From positions 1 through 6,238 of the IMG/VR virus record IMGVR_UViG_2534682159_000005: 6,238 nt of DNA; one strand, given 5' to 3'. Source of the DNA: a virus (Duplodnaviria > Heunggongvirae > Uroviricota > Caudoviricetes). The notes beneath the pieces were generated by a model. The model had not been told where the DNA came from. It searched no databases and was given only the letters and a program-made list of their open reading frames with translations. The position numbers and the translations under genes were made by a program. Of this stretch, positions 1-6,238 are shown piece after piece (the first letter of the stretch is position 1; each line of letters begins with the position of its first letter).

Positions 1-324
1 GTCCACCAGATACTGGCTGGCCACGTACAATATTGATTTCATCAAACTGCTCATCGTCCATTAACAACCCCGCGTGCGTCAGCGCATCCAGCGGTGCTTT
101 CAGAATATTGTCCAGGTCACGGCGGCGCTTATCCGGTGGCTCTGCAATAATTTTTATTGCCAGCCGTCCGGACAGGCTTAATTTCAGTCGCTGCTGGCGA
201 ACAATAAGCGCCACTGCCCGGCGATAACCGCTCCCCGGCTTTTGATACAAAAATATGTGCTGCCACGGCGTCGCCAGTAAGTGTTCACCGTCGGCGGGTA
301 AGGTAAAACCAAATCTATGAGCAT
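1..324 (-). pseudogene. rusA: RusA-family Holliday-junction resolvase, reading frame apparently broken by two +1 frameshifts; 3' end runs off the window start
   Basis: Minus-strand ATG at 324-322 preceded by AAGAGG. The N-terminus MLIDLVLPYPPTVNTYWRRRGSTYF resembles the RusA N-terminus (LPWPPSNNRYYR..RG) and this frame stops at TGA 186-184. RusA-like sequence continues in the next frame (FVSKAGER) and then the third frame (YRRAVALIVRQQRLKLSLSGRLAIKIIAEPPDKRRRDLDNILKAPLDALTHAGLLMDDEQFDEINIVRGQPVSGG, open to position 1). This implies an extra base in the T5 run (plus-strand A-run 249-253) and another near 223-228. Confidence 0.55.
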
Positions 325-336
325 CAGTCACCTCTT

Positions 337-1386
337 TTACCCGAGCACGCCAGTCGCAAAGGCGTGATCAAGAAAACGAAAAATTAACTCAATCTGAGAG
401 CCGTACTTTTTCTCAAACTCCTGCGGGTCTGCATGAAGTTCGTTGTGGTGCTCCCGGCACAACGGTAGCGTGAAAATATCGTGGGCCTTTGTTCCCATTC
501 CCCCCTGACCATGACCAATCAGGTGATGCGGATCGTCAGCTGGCTTACCACAACACGCACACGGCTGTGTCTTTACCCAGCGCGTGTATTTCTCATTAAC
601 CCAACGGCGACGTTTAGGCCGCCTCATGAACGATTCAGGAGACTCCGGATCAACGGCGATACTGACAACCGTTTTTTTCTGTGGTGGATTTTGTTGCTGG
701 TGGACGTGAAGTGGCAGCGCAATATTTTTTGTGCGCTGCTTCAGTATGCTGATGGCTGTCTGTTCTCCCGGTACGATGTCACTCTCACGGTATACGGAGC
801 GGATTTTTTCCGCTGGTAATCCCAGCGAACGACGCGCTACTGCCTCAGGTAGTGCATCCACCACCTGATTGCAGGCCGCCCACCAGGATAATTCGGCCAG
901 CGATAACTCCCTCTCCTGCGTACCGCTTATTGCGTGACGGATGACATCAATCATCCAGGCAACCAGATTCTGCTGAGCAAGTTGATCGAGTGATTCTGAT
1001 GTCTGGTCGCGCAGCTGGTTGTCACAGTGCCAGCACAACACCATCGCGCCGGTACCATAACGGTGAATGACTGTTTCGCTGTGATGATAATCGCCGTGTG
1101 GCCACTGGCAGGATTTCACGTGACGTAATAACCAGTCAGACAGTGCACCTGCACCACCTGCTGCACGAATAACCCGCTCATCGCTGAAAAATGGCAGTAA
1201 TGTTTTATCCTCTGCCAGCGGCTGGCGAACGGCAGGAACGACTCCGGACGGCAGACCGCGCATGTTTTTCGGTTCCGGCTCCACCAGCACCCTGCCGCAA
1301 TGAAAAACAGGCCGTGATTCGCGTCCGGGCTTAAGGACCACCAGGCCAAGTTCCGGCACCAGAACAGGTCGAAGTAATACCCGCAC
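337..1386 (-). CDS. ydfU: YdfU-like DUF968 prophage protein (349 aa) with C-terminal Cys/His HNH-like zinc-binding motif
   Basis: 349-aa ORF from GTG at 1386 (GGAGG 4 nt upstream) to TAA at 339-337. The C-terminal motif CACCGKP..DPHHLIGHG..CREHHNELH is typical of DUF968/HNH-like prophage proteins. Length and position beside hokD and a Q-proximal resolvase match the Qin prophage ydfU; the symbol is from recollection, not a search. Confidence 0.75.
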   Translation of the reverse strand: MRVLLRPVLVPELGLVVLKPGRESRPVFHCGRVLVEPEPKNMRGLPSGVVPAVRQPLAEDKTLLPFFSDERVIRAAGGAGALSDWLLRHVKSCQWPHGDYHHSETVIHRYGTGAMVLCWHCDNQLRDQTSESLDQLAQQNLVAWMIDVIRHAISGTQERELSLAELSWWAACNQVVDALPEAVARRSLGLPAEKIRSVYRESDIVPGEQTAISILKQRTKNIALPLHVHQQQNPPQKKTVVSIAVDPESPESFMRRPKRRRWVNEKYTRWVKTQPCACCGKPADDPHHLIGHGQGGMGTKAHDIFTLPLCREHHNELHADPQEFEKKYGSQIELIFRFLDHAFATGVLG

Positions 1387-1387
1387 G

Positions 1388-1660
1388 TTACCTCCAGATA
1401 CGTTGCTGGAATGTGCGGGACGGACGCGGTGGATGTTCGGAATAAGGGAGCCTGACAGAGATTATCCAGTGACGATAATCGAGGCTGATGGCTTTCTTAA
1501 CCTCGTATCCGCGCCTGCGGTAACACTGAATCAGCCATTCGGCCTGTTCTTCAGTGCATGGGGGATGCTGGTACCAGTCGGTTTTAAATACGTGCGAATG
1601 CCGCCCCCGCTTAATGGCCGGGACGGCTTCAGAATTGTGGGATTTTATACGTTGCGCCAT
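1388..1660 (-). CDS. Small prophage protein of unknown function (90 aa from ATG 1660; the ORF extends to GTG at 1678)
   Basis: ATG at 1660-1658 preceded by GGAGAA with 4-nt spacing. The stop TAA 1390-1388 sits 1 nt before the ydfU-like GTG start, and the GGAGG for that gene lies in its last codons. Occupies the slot that rem holds next to hokD/ydfU in the Qin prophage, but the sequence identity is not verified. Confidence 0.55.
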   Translation of the reverse strand: MAQRIKSHNSEAVPAIKRGRHSHVFKTDWYQHPPCTEEQAEWLIQCYRRRGYEVKKAISLDYRHWIISVRLPYSEHPPRPSRTFQQRIWR

Positions 1661-1710
1661 CGGGTTCTCCGGTGACACAGCAGGTGCCAGTTGTTCAGGC
1701 CGGCGTGCGA

Positions 1711-1740
1711 ATTGTAAACCAGAATGCCAGGAAAAAACAA
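1711..1740 (-). promoter_or_regulatory. Candidate sigma70 promoter for the 90-aa/ydfU-like/rusA transcription unit
   Basis: Minus strand TTGTTT (1740-1735), 18-nt spacer, TACAAT (1716-1711), about 50 nt upstream of ATG 1660. The -35 is weak and overlaps the U-tract of the hokD terminator. Confidence 0.2.
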
Positions 1741-1758
1741 AACCCGCAGAAGCGGGTT
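1731..1758 (-). terminator. Rho-independent terminator downstream of hokD
   Basis: Minus strand AACCCGC-TTCT-GCGGGTT followed by TTGTTTTTT (7-bp GC-rich stem, 4-nt loop, U-tract). On the plus strand the same hairpin has no following T-run, so it is oriented for minus-strand transcripts. Confidence 0.7.
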
Positions 1759-1761
1759 AAG

Positions 1762-1786
1762 TGCGGGTGCGTTGAGGATGCCTGAC
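1762..1786 (-). promoter_or_regulatory. 3' UTR element complementary to the hok mRNA 5' leader (fbi-like fold-back element)
   Basis: Plus-strand 1761-1777 GTGCGGGTGCGTTGAGG is the inverted repeat of plus-strand 2140-2154 CCTCAAGCACCCGCA (15 of 16 with one bulge, extendable to about 25 nt with mismatches). Both lie inside the predicted hokD transcript. Confidence 0.45.
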
Positions 1787-1797
1787 ACATCAGAGGT

Positions 1798-1819
1798 GGC
1801 GAGGGATTTCTCCCTCGCC
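1798..1819 (-). other. Perfect 9-bp stem hairpin with tetraloop immediately 3' of the hokD stop codon
   Basis: Minus strand GGCGAGGGA-GAAA-TCCCTCGCC begins 8 nt after the hokD stop. No U-tract follows, so it is more likely an mRNA structural or stability element than a terminator. Confidence 0.4.
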
Positions 1820-1826
1820 GGGTCTC

Positions 1827-1982
1827 TTACTTCTCAGATTCGTAAGCTGTGAAGACAGCGACCTCCGTCTGGCCGGTTCGGATTCGTACCTCGCAGAGGT
1901 CTTTCCTCGTTACCAGTACCGTTACAACGACGGTAATACAGATGACGATCAGGGCGATTAGCATCGCCTTTTGCTGCTTCAT
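1827..1982 (-). CDS. hokD: Hok/Gef family type I toxin (51 aa), HokD/RelF-like
   Basis: MKQQKAMLIALIVICITVVVTVLVTRKDLCEVRIRTGQTEVAVFTAYESEK: single transmembrane helix followed by the conserved RKDLCEVRIR..EVAVF..YE Hok signature, near-identical in pattern to HokD of E. coli K-12 as I recall it. ATG at 1982-1980 with AGGAG 8 nt upstream. The track ORF (1827..2039) extends 19 codons upstream in frame, probably not used. Confidence 0.85.
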   Translation of the reverse strand: MKQQKAMLIALIVICITVVVTVLVTRKDLCEVRIRTGQTEVAVFTAYESEK

Positions 1983-1995
1983 AGCCTGCTGCTCC

Positions 1996-2024
1996 TTGCC
2001 TTTCGGCGCATAAGAGGCTAATCT
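1996..2024 (+). promoter_or_regulatory. Candidate antisense promoter at the hok start region (possible Sok-like antisense RNA)
   Basis: Plus strand TTGCCT (1996-2001), 17-nt spacer, TAATCT (2019-2024). It would drive a transcript antisense to the hok leader (about 2031 onward). No clean terminator was found, so this is weakly supported. Confidence 0.2.
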
Positions 2025-2130
2025 AAGTGTGCAAGTCATAGATATGGCCTCAGATTAATGTTAAGCGTCCTGCAAGACGCATAATGTTAACTGGGGCTTT
2101 TCTCTGTCTGCCTTACGTCGGCATGCCCGA

Positions 2131-2154
2131 GGCAGACAGCCTCAAGCACCCGCA
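2131..2154 (-). promoter_or_regulatory. 5' leader element of hokD mRNA complementary to the 3' UTR (tac-like fold-back element)
   Basis: Minus-strand leader TGCGGGTGCTTGAGG (2154-2140) pairs with the 3' UTR segment at 1762-1777. It lies just downstream of the candidate -10 TAGAAT and is followed by a 9-bp stem hairpin (2139-2104). Confidence 0.45.
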
Positions 2155-2157
2155 GCA

Positions 2158-2185
2158 ATTCTACTTAACTCTTCTTTCCCCGCAA
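2158..2185 (-). promoter_or_regulatory. Candidate sigma70 promoter for the hokD mRNA
   Basis: Minus strand TTGCGG (2185-2180), 16-nt spacer, TAGAAT (2163-2158). The predicted start near 2151 coincides with the 5' complementary element and gives a transcript of about 420 nt to the terminator at 1731, the size typical of hok mRNAs. Confidence 0.4.
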
Positions 2186-2192
2186 ACCGTTT

Positions 2193-2276
2193 TTATCCCC
2201 AGCGGCAAATCGAATACACCACCAGCGCCACCGCCATTGCAATTCCTACCGTTATGAACGCTTCAGGCCAGGTCAT
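2193..2276 (-). CDS. 27-aa hydrophobic single-helix peptide, translationally coupled to the upstream 171-aa gene (absent from the ORF track because of its size)
   Basis: MTWPEAFITVGIAMAVALVVYSICRWG. The ATG at 2276-2274 overlaps the TGA stop of the 171-aa gene (ATGA). It has a hydrophobic core with a basic/aromatic C-terminus and a TAA stop at 2195-2193. Confidence 0.45.
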   Translation of the reverse strand: MTWPEAFITVGIAMAVALVVYSICRWG

Positions 2277-2788
2277 CGTAAAATATTCTCCTCGTTTATC
2301 AGTCCGTTTCGCTTCAGGTAGTCCATCGCCTTATCCGGTAATTTGCAGTCCGGCTTCGCTTTTTTCAGTTGGCTGACCAGCCGTTTAACCCACATTGCTA
2401 ATTCGCTAACCTGATTGCCGGATGCTGGTGGATTGTCGGCTTTACCCAGAATGGCAGCACAGCAGGCCTCTCTGAGCACCCAGTCAACAGCATCCTTCCA
2501 TGCTCCTGTTTCGACTGGCGGATTCTCACGCTTTACCTGTTCATAAAAGCGCACAGCTTTAACCAGTCCTTCTGATGTCACCGGGACTGGCGGGCCGATG
2601 AATAAGGCCTGAATTTCATAGTTCGGCCTGTCGTTACAATCCTCTTTTGTCGGTACATATTTCCAGTCACCAGCCCACTGCTTCCCCTGAAAGTCTGTAA
2701 CGTCTTTTTTCACGTAGCGATATCGCCATGCAACTGGTTTTGCCTGCCCTGCCGTTTCATGCCCTTCCTGATAATTAATCTCGCTCAT
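2273..2788 (-). CDS. Hypothetical prophage protein (171 aa)
   Basis: ATG at 2788-2786 overlaps the stop of the upstream 58-aa gene (ATGA). Trp/Tyr-rich N-terminal half and a CC pair; no family recognised. Confidence 0.7.
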   Translation of the reverse strand: MSEINYQEGHETAGQAKPVAWRYRYVKKDVTDFQGKQWAGDWKYVPTKEDCNDRPNYEIQALFIGPPVPVTSEGLVKAVRFYEQVKRENPPVETGAWKDAVDWVLREACCAAILGKADNPPASGNQVSELAMWVKRLVSQLKKAKPDCKLPDKAMDYLKRNGLINEENILR

Positions 2789-2961
2789 TCATCGCCCCAC
2801 TCATCACAATATGCTTCGACCGGAGTTTTTCCTGCTTCATAGTCATCACGCCATGCTTCAGCATCGGCGGCACTTCCACCACGTAACTCTGCATAGTCCA
2901 TTAACAGTTCATGCCATTCTTCAAAACTGACGTTGTATTTAGTTGAACCAAAATCAGCCAT
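2785..2961 (-). CDS. Small acidic protein (58 aa), absent from the ORF track
   Basis: MADFGSTKYNVSFEEWHELLMDYAELRGGSAADAEAWRDDYEAGKTPVEAYCDEWGDE. ATG at 2961-2959 with AGGA 8 nt upstream. Its start overlaps the end of the 60-aa gene by 8 nt and its TGA stop overlaps the ATG of the 171-aa gene. Confidence 0.5.
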   Translation of the reverse strand: MADFGSTKYNVSFEEWHELLMDYAELRGGSAADAEAWRDDYEAGKTPVEAYCDEWGDE

Positions 2962-3136
2962 TTTGTTCTTCCTCTTCGTCTTTTATTTCGTGATATGAGT
3001 AATTGCAGTAGTTAAAGAAAATTTCTTTTGCTTCGTCATGAATTTCATCAGGTGTTGCGTCATCGTCCACTTCGAATACATCCTCAAAATCTCCACCGGC
3101 TATTCCCGTTTCAATAATTATTTTGAACTTTCGCAT
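2954..3136 (-). CDS. Small highly acidic protein (60 aa), AT-rich gene
   Basis: MRKFKIIIETGIAGGDFEDVFEVDDDATPDEIHDEAKEIFFNYCNYSYHEIKDEEEEQNG. It is the first ATG in frame after an upstream stop. GC content is visibly lower than the flanking genes, and a 92-bp intergenic region with a palindrome lies upstream. Confidence 0.6.
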   Translation of the reverse strand: MRKFKIIIETGIAGGDFEDVFEVDDDATPDEIHDEAKEIFFNYCNYSYHEIKDEEEEQNG

Positions 3137-3208
3137 TTCATTACCGCCCTGCCGGGCGGTCTCCTGATGTTCTGAGGGTGCAGAAATCCCTCCTGTTAAG
3201 GATTAATT

Positions 3209-3223
3209 TTTAGCAGTGCTAAA
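3209..3223. promoter_or_regulatory. 15-bp palindrome TTTAGCA-G-TGCTAAA in an AT-rich intergenic region (candidate operator/promoter element)
   Basis: Perfect 7-bp arms around one central base, in the 92-bp gap between the 118-aa gene stop (3229) and the 60-aa gene start (3136). Flanked by A/T-rich sequence with -10-like hexamers (TAAAAT). Confidence 0.35.
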
Positions 3224-3228
3224 TTTAA

Positions 3229-3585
3229 TTATTCAGTTCTGGATTTTGTCGCCCTGCGTATCCGCGCTTTCGCGTTACGCTCAATCTGAATTAGCTTTCC
3301 TATATTTTTTCGCCTTTCCTGTTCCTCCAGGCGCAATAGCTTTACATCATCTGCCAGTCTGGTTTCTCTTTTCGCCACAGAGAGCATCCAGTCAAACGGC
3401 TCCACAACTGAACCGCAGATTTTACAGCGGACCTGACGCTCTTTTTCGTCAACCCGAACAGAGGCGTGATGACAATATGGTCTTTCCGATGGCTCATAAA
3501 GAAAATTAACCTGATTACGAGGGTCATCCTCTTTTACCGGAAATAAAACGATATTGCTTAACTCATCCTCTGGTTTTATTTCCAT
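3229..3585 (-). CDS. Zinc-ribbon protein with basic coiled-coil tail (118 aa), function unknown
   Basis: ATG at 3585-3583 with AAGGAGAGGAG just upstream. C-x-H-H ... C-K-I-C-G spacing suggests a zinc ribbon, and the C-terminus is Arg/Lys/Glu-rich. Overlaps the end of the upstream gene by 23 nt. Confidence 0.7.
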   Translation of the reverse strand: MEIKPEDELSNIVLFPVKEDDPRNQVNFLYEPSERPYCHHASVRVDEKERQVRCKICGSVVEPFDWMLSVAKRETRLADDVKLLRLEEQERRKNIGKLIQIERNAKARIRRATKSRTE

Positions 3586-4024
3586 GCTCCTCTCCTTTGA
3601 TGCGAATGCCAGCGACGCGTAATGCGTGTTCTAGGTCAATCAGGTAAAGCCAACTGCCATTTTCTTTAGGTATCATGACTTGTCGCTCATCTGCATTTAT
3701 CGGGTGTCCATATCGAAGGTCGTAGCGAGTCGGTAATTGAACTTCCCGCGCTTCCAGTTCAGCAATGCGCTTACTCCCATCCGAGATAACACCTTCGTAA
3801 TACTCACGTTGCTCGTTGAGTTGTGATTTTGCTTCTTCCAGTCCATCCAGCAAATCAGCGATAATATCCGCTTCCCGATGACGGATGTGACGCTTAAACG
3901 CAGCAAGAGCCGCATCACAATCCCGTTCAGCATTTGGGCTGTCCGGGATAGCCTGATACCACGCCAGCGTCGACTGATAGTTTTGTGCTGCCTCACGAAG
4001 CGCCTCATAGTTAACCTCTCTCAT
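3563..4024 (-). CDS. Ea22-like (ead/Ea22-like family) coiled-coil prophage protein (153 aa)
   Basis: The ATG at 4024-4022 overlaps the TGA stop of the DUF4406 gene (ATGA). The N-terminal NYEALREAA and central AELEAREV coiled-coil segment resemble Ea22-like prophage proteins; assignment is from memory. Confidence 0.65.
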   Translation of the reverse strand: MREVNYEALREAAQNYQSTLAWYQAIPDSPNAERDCDAALAAFKRHIRHREADIIADLLDGLEEAKSQLNEQREYYEGVISDGSKRIAELEAREVQLPTRYDLRYGHPINADERQVMIPKENGSWLYLIDLEHALRVAGIRIKGEEHGNKTRG

Positions 4025-4317
4025 TGAGCCACCTCCTGATAAATCACCGCATGCCCCAGTTTCTCCGCCAGTGCCAGCTCTGCCTTAGCACCCGCTGACC
4101 GCTGCCAGCCATTCAGCATGTAAATCGCATCCACACAACGAATCATTGCCATGCAAATATCCATGTAGTGCGGCTGTGTCAGCCCGTCCGGAAGTACTGC
4201 CGGGTTTAAGACGGTATGCCCTTCCCGTTTCAGTGCTTCTTCCGCCCTGTGAAATGCCTCGCGGTTGAAATTTTCATATCCCGTCATTGGACCGGCGATA
4301 TAAATTCTCACCCTCAC
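4021..4317 (-). CDS. DUF4406 protein (nucleoside 2-deoxyribosyltransferase-like fold), 98 aa
   Basis: MRVRIYIAGPMTG..FNREAFHRAEEALKREGHTVLNPA..YMDICMAMIRCVDAIYMLNGWQRSAGAKAELALAEKLGHAV matches the DUF4406 signature (IAGPMTG, NPA, LxGWxxSxGA). The GTG start at 4317-4315 has AGGAGG 8 nt upstream and overlaps the TGA stop of the HTH gene (GTGA). Confidence 0.85.
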   Translation of the reverse strand: MRVRIYIAGPMTGYENFNREAFHRAEEALKREGHTVLNPAVLPDGLTQPHYMDICMAMIRCVDAIYMLNGWQRSAGAKAELALAEKLGHAVIYQEVAQ

Positions 4318-4595
4318 GCCTGAACCCTCCTGTCGAAATAAACGTAGTTATTCACTATGCGCAGCGGCATGCCTAATTTTCTGGCAATTTCCCTTCTTTG
4401 CATGCCTCTCTGATGCAGTTGCCGCGCCAGCTCAATATCACGCTGAGAATATTTTGCCGACGGGTGAAAATCACCACGTAACATCATGCTGATGCCCAGC
4501 TCCCGTGCCTTCGTTCTCACTGCCGCTTCAGTTCGTCCGATAAGTGCGCCAATGCTTTTTACCTTCATCGTTCCCGCACACTGCCGGAGTATCAT
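4314..4595 (-). CDS. Small helix-turn-helix DNA-binding protein (about 93 aa); start uncertain
   Basis: Two HTH-like segments (KSIGALIGRTEAAVRTKARELGI and MQRREIARKLGMPLRIVNNYV, the second resembling NinH/Fis-type HTH). The track ORF starts at 4718 inside the upstream gene. Candidate starts are ATG 4595, ATG 4568, or GTG 4631 (which overlaps the upstream TGA stop). Confidence 0.55.
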   Translation of the reverse strand: MILRQCAGTMKVKSIGALIGRTEAAVRTKARELGISMMLRGDFHPSAKYSQRDIELARQLHQRGMQRREIARKLGMPLRIVNNYVYFDRRVQA

Positions 4596-4627
4596 GATTT
4601 CCGCCCGGCACCACGTCTTCCACCCAC

Positions 4628-5344
4628 TCACCGCTGCTGTTCTCTGGTGGCGGTAATATCCCGGAGAATATCCCGGCACTTGTTCAGCTCCCGCAGCGCG
4701 GCGCAGACTCGCTCCCACTTCTGAACCTGACCTTTTGCCCGGCGCAGCTCGCGGTTAGCCACATGCAGCGATGGTAGAATCAGGTCATCTGCTTTCGTTT
4801 CGGTGACCGATGGCTGTAACTTCACAATGTCTTCCACGATTTCTGTTTTCATTTCTTCCTGTGTCGTCGTTTCCTGGACTGGTAACGCAACACCTGCTGG
4901 CTGAGGAAAGGCTTTACCATCGGTTTCCGCTACGGATGCAGCTTCCGGCTCTGCCGGTAAATCAGCGCCCGGTATGCAGTAACGAAATTTACCGCCCTGA
5001 TTCACGCGAATCAGACGCCCTTTGCTGATTGCCATGGCCAGCGATGAATTCGCCCGGCGGGAGGTAATCCCGAACATCAGTGCCAGCTCATCCGCCGTTT
5101 GTGGGCCATGTTGTTCAATCGCCTCAGTCAGCATTTGCGCTGTCACTTTCGGTACCGGTGACACTGGTTCACTTTCACCTGCCTGAGTCAGCCACCACAT
5201 CGACCCCTTGTTATCCGCTTCACCACGGCGCTTCAGTTTCCACAGTTCGTTGACCGCATCTTCACGGCTGATTCCAAGGCGGGCCGCCACTACCTGTGAA
5301 GAGGCTCTTTTCAGTGCTTTCAGTGCGTCAAATACGGTTTCCAT
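4628..5344 (-). CDS. Prophage protein with two winged-helix-like domains and an acidic linker (238 aa)
   Basis: The track ORF starts at TTG 5362, but ATG 5344-5342 has GGAGG 8 nt upstream. Two HTH-like segments ([25 protein letters not shown] and [31 protein letters not shown]). Sits 33 nt downstream of the P-like gene, the slot occupied by ren in lambda. Confidence 0.7.
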
Positions 5345-5377
5345 TAAAATTTCCTCCGACAAAATCGTTTCCCAGAT

Positions 5378-6040
5378 TCAAATAAAACCAGCAGCCTTCC
5401 GGCGTTCGTATTCCTGTTTCAGCCGTTCAATTGGCGTTGGCCCTTTCGGGTGTTTCGCCCCTTCCAGTTGTCGTCGCACTGGCGGAACACTCATCCCGTT
5501 ACCAACATGCTTTGCCCATTTCGTCAGTTGCCGTTCCGCAAGTCGTTTTAACTCACCCTGCGTCATCTGGCGCTCAATCCCTCTGGTACGCATTTCGAGG
5601 CAGATGTGGTACAGCACAGGCTGTGGCCACGGGTATTTATCACTCCCGTCGTATCGCCAGGATTCATTGCGCCAGCGCCGGTACTCTTCCATCACGGCAT
5701 CCACCGTAAGACCAAATGGATTTGCCCCACTCTCCGAAATCAGCGCAACAAACTCAGCCAGGTCCGGGGGCCACGTTTCACCCGCCCGGCAGCGGTCCAT
5801 GCACTGACGACAGACCTGCCGGATTTGCTGTTCAGTCATCGCACCAATCTGGGCAATCCAGAGCTTCGAAGGTGCGGCCCCGTTCTTCTGAGTCCAGCGG
5901 TTCGAATACACCTCCCCCATAAGCTCCCACAGCTTCCAGGCCGTTTCCGTTGCTGATAAATCCGTTTTCACGTTCCCACTGTTCGCGTGCTGCCCGGATT
6001 TCCTGAACTGCCCGTGATGCCGTGCCACCTGATGCTGCAT
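5378..6040 (-). CDS. Lambda P-like replication protein (DnaB helicase loader); N-terminal boundary uncertain
   Basis: The C-terminal two thirds align by motif with lambda P (P..FVA.. segment, then YPW...Y...M....T..EL.R.A..L). ATG 6040 has AGGGGG 6 nt upstream, and an alternative ATG at 5920 has GGGAG upstream. The 5' 209 nt overlap the upstream gene in another frame. Confidence 0.7.
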
Positions 6041-6238
6041 GGCTTACCCCCTTGCTGACTGGTTTTACCTGTGCCCTGACGTGCTGCACGTGACGGGCAA
6101 ATTTCTGCTCCCACTGAACCTGCGTGAAAACCTTCCCCTCCGCCATCCAGTAATCCCGGAATGCGGCAAGCTCAGCAGGTGTAAATTCCGGCTCAGGCAG
6201 AGCCATACCCCACACTGCTGCCCGTTGTCGAAAATCCG
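5832..6238 (-). CDS. Replication initiator / replisome organiser with DnaT-like C-terminal domain (partial; 5' end beyond the window)
   Basis: The frame is open to the window edge. [42 protein letters not shown] closely parallels the E. coli DnaT C-terminal domain ([41 protein letters not shown]) as I recall it. It lies immediately upstream of the P-like gene, the position of O. Confidence 0.7.

Follow-up and report, generated by a model that had tools for sequence, protein, structure and literature searches.

A stretch of Caudoviricetes DNA 6,238 nucleotides long (positions 1 to 6,238 of IMG/VR record IMGVR_UViG_2534682159_000005; hereafter the window) carries a gene for a 98-residue protein of the family DUF4406. 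Its sequence, a structural model and analogy to characterized enzymes suggest, with a probability that we put at roughly 0.5, that the protein is a minimal member of the nucleoside 2-deoxyribosyltransferase (NDT) superfamily, acting as a deoxynucleoside monophosphate (dNMP) N-glycosidase or as a deoxyribose-5-phosphate transferase, probably on purine dNMPs. A constellation of Glu, Tyr and Ser residues, a switch from Asp to Ser at one position of the active site and the fusion of related proteins to pyrophosphohydrolases together give a concrete prediction for DUF4406: a dNMP N-glycosidase, with purines as the first substrates to try. The gene itself is unexceptional, one more representative of a known, uncharacterized family and common in Escherichia coli prophages, and the value of the analysis lies in this testable prediction for the family and not in the E. 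coli locus.

A small protein with a stripped-down NDT fold

The assignment to DUF4406 had been made from the DNA letters in an earlier, sequence-only reading, and a profile search against Pfam confirmed it: the 98-residue open reading frame (ORF) covers positions 2-91 of the 91 in PF14359 at E = 3.5e-37 (127.1 bits, with a cut-off of 22). The ORF also matches PHROG 355, named 'nucleoside 2-deoxyribosyltransferase', at 1e-47, and RefSeq holds the protein as WP_001376436.1, 'DUF4406 domain-containing protein'. Two further Pfam families, DUF1937 and PF05014 (Nuc_deoxyrib_tr; 16.7 bits against a threshold of 28.8, E = 0.0081), gave subthreshold matches. DUF4406 comprises 12,337 representative clusters at E ≤ 1e-3 (50% identity), spread over phages of Proteobacteria, Actinobacteria and Firmicutes, and the literature that mentions it by name gives it no function, while searches by Pfam accession found nothing. 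About one complete E. coli genome in five (1206 of 5426) carries the gene, which resides there in Stx-converting and other lambdoid prophages. None of 24 distinct alleles contains an internal stop codon, and they differ by 163 synonymous and 90 non-synonymous codon changes; judged from these alleles, the ORF is intact and under purifying selection.

An AlphaFold2 model of the protein, built on 38 homologs, consists of four β-α units and scored 90.4 in the predicted local distance difference test (pLDDT) and 0.85 for predicted template modelling (pTM). In this model strand 4 occupies residues 90-93, and the chain ends five residues after it. Foldseek matched the model to PDB structures of NDTs from Trypanosoma brucei, Chroococcidiopsis, Leishmania and Bacillus, to human and rat DNPH1 and to MilB/BcmB, with E-values from 2.6e-5 to 5e-3 and template modelling (TM) scores of about 0.7. 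The NDT-like fold that the sequence-only reading had proposed is thus borne out by the model, in which DUF4406 appears as a four-strand, stripped-down version of it.

Comparison of sequences led to the same superfamily. Neither a single-sequence search nor a narrow family profile (A1) found a relative among PDB sequences, and only a broader profile built from 75 diverse DUF4406 representatives (A2) reached T. brucei NDT (PDB 2a0k), at E = 6.4e-4. This alignment pairs YIAGP with YIAGP, D53 with an Asp, S74-x-G-A-x-x-E80 with D-C-G-T-A-F-E and strand 4 with strand 4. A lack of conserved catalytic residues, which the sequence-only reading had named as counting against its proposal, is not what the alignment shows: Y6, D53 and E80 align with the Tyr, Asp and nucleophile Glu of the T. 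brucei enzyme. Within the 75 representatives S74 is invariant (75/75), as are F22, P43 and Y51; E80 (72/75), G76 (73/75), G9, P10, G13, P39, G45, W71 and A77 are at least 90% conserved, and the position of Tyr6 holds Tyr in 65 and Phe in eight.

A nucleotide-type active-site signature

The segment S74..E80 follows a pattern, [S/D]-x-G-x-x-x-E, that is shared by Lactobacillus leichmannii NDT (LlNDT; D92..E98), human DNPH1 (S98..E104) and DmtZ of phage Wayne (S85..E91). NDTs have Asp or Asn at the first position of this pattern for the 5'-OH, and the hydrolases have small uncharged residues there (PMC12884076). In DNPH1, S98 coordinates the 5'-phosphate together with S128' of the partner subunit, the MilB equivalent of S98 being S97, and the catalytic triad is Y24/D80/E104, of which E104 forms the covalent intermediate (PMC10603095). 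The human DNPH1 and LlNDT sequences that we used are identical to the PDB chains, and mutant PDB entries confirm the catalytic residues (E104Q in 8qhq; Y7F and D72N in 9gn4). In the 98-residue protein and its close subfamily, the Tyr-Asp-Glu set would correspond to Y6, D53 and E80. Alignments of DUF4406 profiles with single DNPH1, LlNDT and DmtZ sequences (hhalign), and searches of DNPH1 and LlNDT with A2 (hmmsearch), were not significant, so the mapping of residues onto DNPH1 rests on T. brucei NDT, the spacing of the motif and the fold. Because an invariant Ser stands where NDTs have Asp, DUF4406 bears, by these alignments, a nucleotide-type and not a nucleoside-type signature.

This switch speaks to the label that DUF4406 proteins carry in PHROGs and in many phage records, according to which they are true NDTs that swap bases between deoxynucleosides for salvage. 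The name of PHROG 355, the rank of NDTs as the top fold and profile matches in the PDB and the conservation of the Tyr and the nucleophile Glu all agree with the label, but we consider it unlikely to be right. The PF05014 score falls below its cut-off, and the Asp that binds the 5'-OH (LlNDT D92; DCGTAFE in T. brucei NDT) is replaced by an invariant Ser, as in the phosphate-binding hydrolases (PMC10603095). Additionally, the protein lacks what in NDTs is the C-terminal half of the active site, the recurrent gene partners described below produce dNMPs and not nucleosides, and the names given to phage homologs ('MazG-like', 'dCMP deaminase', 'hydrolase') are inconsistent.

The latter names belong to DUF4406 homologs of 101-128 residues that stand in phage GenBank records as 'MazG-like pyrophosphatase', 'deoxycytidylate deaminase' or 'hydrolase' (Table 1). 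We rejected the idea that these are fusion proteins: Kaylissa gp27, Daob gp55 and the homolog in MW202426 are single-domain proteins (101-125 residues), and WheatThin gp64 has 128 residues. The names look like annotation carry-over and carry no evidence.

Pyrophosphohydrolase partners in other phages

Fold matches in BFVD included DUF4406-like domains within proteins named 'dATP/dGTP diphosphohydrolase N-terminal domain-containing'. In Pseudomonas phage Baskent_P6 the DUF4406 start shares 4 bases with a PF04447 (dATP-dGTP_PPHyd) gene, and in Mycobacterium phage Milly a gene for a PF18909 (dGTP_diPhyd_N) protein comes next after gp55, which contains DUF4406, again with 4 bases shared. PF04447-like genes are present in 58 of 80 Pseudomonas-type DUF4406 loci and PF18909-like genes in 10 of 64 actinophage-type loci, and the pyrophosphohydrolase and DUF4406 genes of a pair are directly adjacent in 59/65 and 13/13 cases, respectively; the Pseudomonas-type loci are closely related, and independent events are far fewer than these raw counts imply. 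When DUF4406 sequences were clustered at 60% identity, the association appeared in 9 of 39 clusters. Six true fusions were confirmed with Pfam, comprising DUF4406 followed by PF04447 (L241, L244), PF04447 followed by DUF4406 (L231, L233) and DUF4406 followed by PF18909 (L282, L289). A literature search found no description of this link. With Ser74 at the phosphate site of DNPH1 and MilB and pyrophosphohydrolases as partners, the evidence points to 5'-phosphorylated deoxynucleotides as substrates.

To place the E. coli gene among its relatives, we used a close set of 81 loci (80 viral-contig loci with DUF4406 identity of at least 90%, plus the reference prophage described below) and a species-diverse set of 80 loci, one genome per species, of which 79 were compared (DUF4406 identity 43-66%). 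These sets supply some of the points that weigh against a dNMP-cleaving enzyme. A pyrophosphohydrolase partner is missing from each of the 81 E. coli-type loci, 18.9 kb of the reference prophage among them, and occurs in only one of the 79 species-diverse loci; carrying the inference over to the E. coli gene depends on sequence identity of about 35-40% between members of a single Pfam family. The putative general acid D53, present in 37 of 38 members of the close subfamily, occurs in 31 of the 75 representatives of DUF4406 at large, and the protein lacks the C-terminal segment by which a neighboring subunit completes the active site. No profile comparison made directly with DNPH1 or DmtZ reached significance, no solved DUF4406 structure is detectable by sequence, and we found no assay of any DUF4406 protein in the literature.

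Some of these features would suit a small protein that binds nucleotides without catalysis, as a sponge or regulator, and has kept just the fold: at 98 residues the protein is very small, the active-site elements of a second subunit are lacking and the general acid is not conserved family-wide. We regard this as improbable, given that the Glu (72/75), the Ser (75/75) and a Tyr or Phe (73/75) are retained across thousands of clusters and that the fusion of DUF4406 to enzymes of a single pathway suggests reactions catalysed in succession.

A model for the reaction and its possible role

The 98-residue ORF is probably transcribed together with the early genes of the prophage. If its product is a dNMP N-glycosidase or deoxyribose-5-phosphate transferase, it would work by double displacement as in DNPH1/Rcl, MilB and phage DmtZ. 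Tyr6 would orient Glu80, which would attack C1' to form a covalent sugar-phosphate intermediate, while Asp53 (in the close subfamily) would protonate the leaving base and Ser74 would hold the 5'-phosphate; as a guess, the conserved N18/R19 could stand in for the second phosphate ligand. The products would be the free base and deoxyribose 5-phosphate. In other phage lineages DUF4406 may act directly after a dATP/dGTP pyrophosphohydrolase, in a path from deoxynucleoside triphosphate (dNTP) to dNMP to base. The Stx2c prophage has no such partner, and the enzyme would therefore use any available dNMPs. Our default guess for its role in a lambdoid prophage is sanitation or remodelling of the nucleotide pool.

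A more sweeping version, which we think possible but doubtful, makes DUF4406 a so far overlooked, very large clade of minimal enzymes in phages, either dNMP N-glycosidases or deoxyribose-5-phosphate transferases, that would destroy or re-route purine deoxynucleotides in non-Z phages, with or without a fused dATP/dGTP pyrophosphohydrolase and with irreversible loss of the purine deoxynucleotides. It would imply widespread remodelling of nucleotide pools and could blunt host immunity that needs dNMPs or dNTPs as precursors, in the manner of T5 Dmp with Kongming. The action of Dmp against Kongming is a precedent for counter-defence by precursor depletion (10.1101/2024.12.20.629578); no sign of it was seen here, either with PADLOC or among the neighbors of DUF4406.

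A different kind of counter-defence, aimed at signalling or modified nucleotides, had been raised in the sequence-only reading, and nothing in the context of the gene speaks for it. Such an enzyme would cleave cyclic ADP-ribose isomers, cyclic oligonucleotides or NAD+ by way of the TIR-like side of the fold, which we judge improbable. NDTs, MilB and DNPH1 outscore TIR domains, PADLOC returned 0 defence-system matches, and the only recurrent partners of DUF4406 are dNTP pyrophosphohydrolases. In different species DUF4406 sits among replication, methylase and nin-type genes, and no signature of defence or anti-defence was seen in these. Lambdoid phages are not known to have the dNMP kinase by which Kongming is triggered, which also weighs against counter-defence. 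A component of a defence system was likewise rejected for want of a PADLOC match.

Gene overlaps and the upstream helix-turn-helix gene

The DUF4406 gene lies directly downstream of a gene for a small helix-turn-helix (HTH) protein, and the sequence-only reading had described the two as translationally coupled. As sequence, this coupling is real. The GTG start of DUF4406 and the TGA stop of the HTH gene overlap at 4317..4314 behind a perfect AGGAGG, as had been noted. The minus strand reads ...GACAGGAGGGTTCAGGCGTGAGGGTGAGA... across the junction, and the segment with AGGAGG (4331..4326), spacer and GTG/TGA overlap is GACAGGAGGGTTCAGGCGTGAGGGTG. In E. coli alleles AGGAGG stands 7-8 nucleotides ahead of the first DUF4406 GTG irrespective of the upstream gene, and in 61 relatives with an alternative upstream gene it stands 7 nucleotides from the same GTG. 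Because this placement holds whichever gene is upstream, the first GTG (4317) is the likely start by sequence comparison; most homologs of other genera start two codons inward, at MKIYIAG. The number of AGGAGG copies in the window is itself unremarkable (three observed, 2.6 expected), and it is the placement that is specific, with two of the three lying 7-8 nucleotides 5' of start codons that overlap the preceding stop. The third (3189-3194, minus strand) is in the intergenic gap at 3137-3228, 52 nucleotides before the next annotated ATG (3136), and a short unannotated ORF may start there.

The HTH gene matches PHROG 323, 'transcriptional regulator', at 2e-26, and has subthreshold Pfam matches to HTH_7 (2e-4), Sigma70_r4_2 and HTH_23. 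Its start at GTG 4631, the upper bound given in the sequence-only reading, is preferable to the ATG at 4595 chosen in RefSeq by NCBI's PGAP. That ATG reads CTG (Leu) in several relatives, while GTG 4631 and the N-terminal SGWKxW residues are conserved, and in tblastn searches the alignments to homologs in phages D6 and Parlo and in Vibrio phages begin at residues 1-7 of the 105-residue form. On these comparisons, the protein probably has 105 residues and the database start is too short.

Five genes on the minus strand form a chain (4628-5362, 4314-4631, 4021-4317, 3563-4024 and 3229-3585) whose junctions are three 4-base start/stop overlaps (GTGA, GTGA, ATGA) and one 23-base overlap. No promoter- or terminator-like site was seen on the coding strand from 5362 to 3229, and the chain fits, as expected, a single translationally coupled early operon. 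An RNA element within 4021-4631 was looked for and rejected.

What did not stand is the idea that the coupling marks a meaningful pair. A dedicated two-gene module, be it regulator and enzyme or a toxin-antitoxin-like pair, could draw on the 4-base overlap with its strong Shine-Dalgarno sequence and on the recurrence of the HTH-DUF4406 arrangement in 553 E. coli genomes. We rejected it as very improbable, since the comparative locus data contradict it. The HTH family is directly upstream of DUF4406 in just 20 of the 81 close loci; in the other 61 an unrelated 135-residue protein takes its place, and the same DUF4406 GTG has a 4-base overlap under both upstream genes. None of the 79 species-diverse loci has an HTH homolog upstream. 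There the upstream ORFs fall into 57 clusters and the downstream ORFs into 62, and a Pfam scan of two neighbors per side returned replication proteins (DnaB, O, P), DNA methylases, VRR-NUC, NinX, Ead, DUF968 and the like, with no constant partner. Moreover, similar overlaps join DUF1627 to HTH and DUF4406 to Ead, and distant DUF4406 loci, too, often show overlaps of -4 or -8. We conclude that the coupling is the ordinary tight packing of an operon, here where a mosaic junction lies. In this reading the HTH gene is a mosaic neighbor and no functional partner, and the 4-base overlaps reflect the dense packing of a post-replication (nin-like) operon.

Two contigs from metagenome-assembled genomes carry enterobacterial-prophage-like DNA under other names. 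One is assigned to Collinsella sp. (L082; DUF4406 at 94% identity) and one to Actinomycetes (L094; identities of 64% for DUF4406 and 77% for an HTH homolog, which lies downstream and not upstream of DUF4406). Both contigs are short and probably mis-binned.

Table 1. Coordinates of the features discussed. Entries that begin with L refer to loci other than the window.
Feature	Coordinates	Strand	Remarks
DUF4406 gene	4021..4317	-	98 residues; GTG start 4317, TGA stop 4023..4021
Shine-Dalgarno AGGAGG	4326..4331	-	8-nucleotide spacer before the DUF4406 GTG (4317..4315)
GTGA overlap	4314..4317	-	DUF4406 GTG start and HTH-gene TGA stop (4316..4314)
ATGA overlap	4021..4024	-	DUF4406 TGA stop and ATG start of the Ead/Ea22-like gene (3563..4024)
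AGGAGG inside the DUF4406 3' end	4032..4037	-	7 nucleotides ahead of the Ead/Ea22 ATG
S74-A-G-A-K-A-E80 codons	4078..4098	-	Predicted 5'-phosphate-binding Ser and nucleophile Glu
Tyr6 codon	4300..4302	-	Equivalent of the catalytic-triad Tyr (NDT Tyr7, DNPH1 Tyr24)
Gene for small DNA-binding protein with two HTHs	4314..4631	-	105 residues from GTG 4631; RefSeq 93 residues, ATG 4595
GTGA overlap	4628..4631	-	HTH-gene GTG start and TGA stop of the DUF1627 gene (4628..5362)
DUF4406 homologs under other names	L162:2504-2869; L163:2468-2845; L164:2501-2806; L165:2501-2887		
Adjacent or fused DUF4406-pyrophosphohydrolase	L167:1638-2800; L168:1548-2935		
DUF4406-pyrophosphohydrolase fusions	L241:3007-3615; L231:1864-3324; L289:2992-3723; L282:2896-3651		

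Prophage setting

The 851 bases around the DUF4406 gene are 100% identical to a chromosomal prophage of E. coli O91:H21 FWSEC0008 and to two other strains. In the O91:H21 record the host element is a Rac-like lambdoid prophage with stx2c, whose genes run in the order racR, ydaT-like, DnaT-like, P, DUF1627, 'DNA-binding protein', DUF4406 and Ead/Ea22, followed by several small ORFs, hok, DUF968, rusA, DUF1133, a methylase, tRNAs and stx2AB. This order places DUF4406 in a phage accessory (nin-like) region, in agreement with the setting that had been read from the letters. The minus strand is the coding strand for all genes of the window, and NCBIfam has no model for any of the five window genes tested.

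Several other features of the window were recorded. The Ead/Ea22-like protein (3563-4024, minus strand) has a weak Pfam match to MucB_RseB (4e-5) that is probably spurious and of coiled-coil type; it accounts for the name 'sigma-E factor regulatory protein RseB domain-containing protein' in some RefSeq genomes. A hok/sok toxin-antitoxin module at 1827-2151 (minus strand) comprises a Hok/Gef ORF (PF01848, 4e-23) and sok RNA (Rfam RF01794, 113 bits, E = 5e-26). Its terminator-like hairpin at 1758-1741 is overlapped by a weak isrK-like match, under the gathering score, at 1737-1818. Further on lie a DUF968 gene (337-1386, minus strand; PF06147, 9e-78), whose product has an HNH-like zinc motif at its C terminus, and the 5' part of a RusA resolvase gene (184-324, minus strand), which comes after DUF968 in a typical end of a nin region.

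Comparison with known families

Within Pfam DUF4406, nothing sets the 98-residue protein apart from an ordinary enterobacterial allele: it has the typical length (about 90-120 residues), a single domain, a phage or prophage setting and the motifs YIAGPM, LNPAxLPxGL and GWxxSxGAxxE. Twenty longer representatives of the family (174-358 residues) contain no second Pfam domain and are probably mis-called starts or unknown extensions. DUF1937 (PF09152; PDB 1t1j, Pseudomonas aeruginosa PA1492) is likewise uncharacterized and gives no functional information. As to TIR-domain NADases, the protein has neither a TIR profile match nor a TIR domain as its best structural neighbor.

In both profile and fold searches NDTs (PF05014; L. 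leichmannii, T. brucei) match DUF4406 best, with which they share a flavodoxin-like fold, an N-terminal YIAGP strand, the Tyr (Tyr7) and the nucleophile Glu (LlNDT Glu98). They differ in the Asp that binds the 5'-OH (LlNDT Asp92), which is Ser74 in DUF4406, and in a C-terminal active-site segment (Asn123'/Met125') that the 98-residue protein lacks, the Foldseek targets having 130-160 residues; as noted above, the protein also stays under the PF05014 threshold.

The (deoxy)nucleoside 5'-monophosphate N-glycosidases DNPH1/Rcl and MilB/BcmB have the fold of DUF4406, with Tyr, Asp and Glu at places that appear equivalent and with S-x-G-x-x-x-E, in which the phosphate-binding Ser lies six residues ahead of the nucleophile, as S74 does ahead of E80. 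The 98-residue protein is about 35-60 residues shorter, however, shows no significant sequence similarity to them and has neither the helical extension that donates Ser128' nor the MilB-type Arg23, and the general acid is not conserved across DUF4406.

A functional parallel is found in DmtZ of the Z-genome actinophages. This NDT-like enzyme hydrolyses dAMP to adenine and can transfer deoxyribose 5-phosphate to 2-aminoadenine, and a Dut that hydrolyses dATP and dGTP is its fusion partner or neighbor (PMC12884076). Like DUF4406, DmtZ is a phage NDT-like protein with a Ser-type motif, and its fusion or adjacency parallels that of DUF4406 with PF04447 and PF18909. The two are nonetheless distinct in sequence: the DmtZ domain of the Wayne fusion protein has no Pfam match at all, PF14359 included, a homolog search with it found nothing, and its hhalign comparison with DUF4406 was not significant (probability 0.75%, E = 0.074). 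Archimedes DmtZ gave just a weak BFVD fold match (E 4e-4). In DmtZ, Asn replaces the acid and a C-terminal Trp124' forms a lid. DmtZ also belongs to PurZ0 phages, whereas the 18.9 kb that were examined of the prophage with the 98-residue protein are free of Z-DNA genes. By sequence, DmtZ is thus a functional analogue of DUF4406 and not a member of the family. If the prediction for DUF4406 is true, the inconsistent names in phage records could be corrected, and the DutZ-DmtZ logic of Z-genome phages would extend to many phages with normal DNA.

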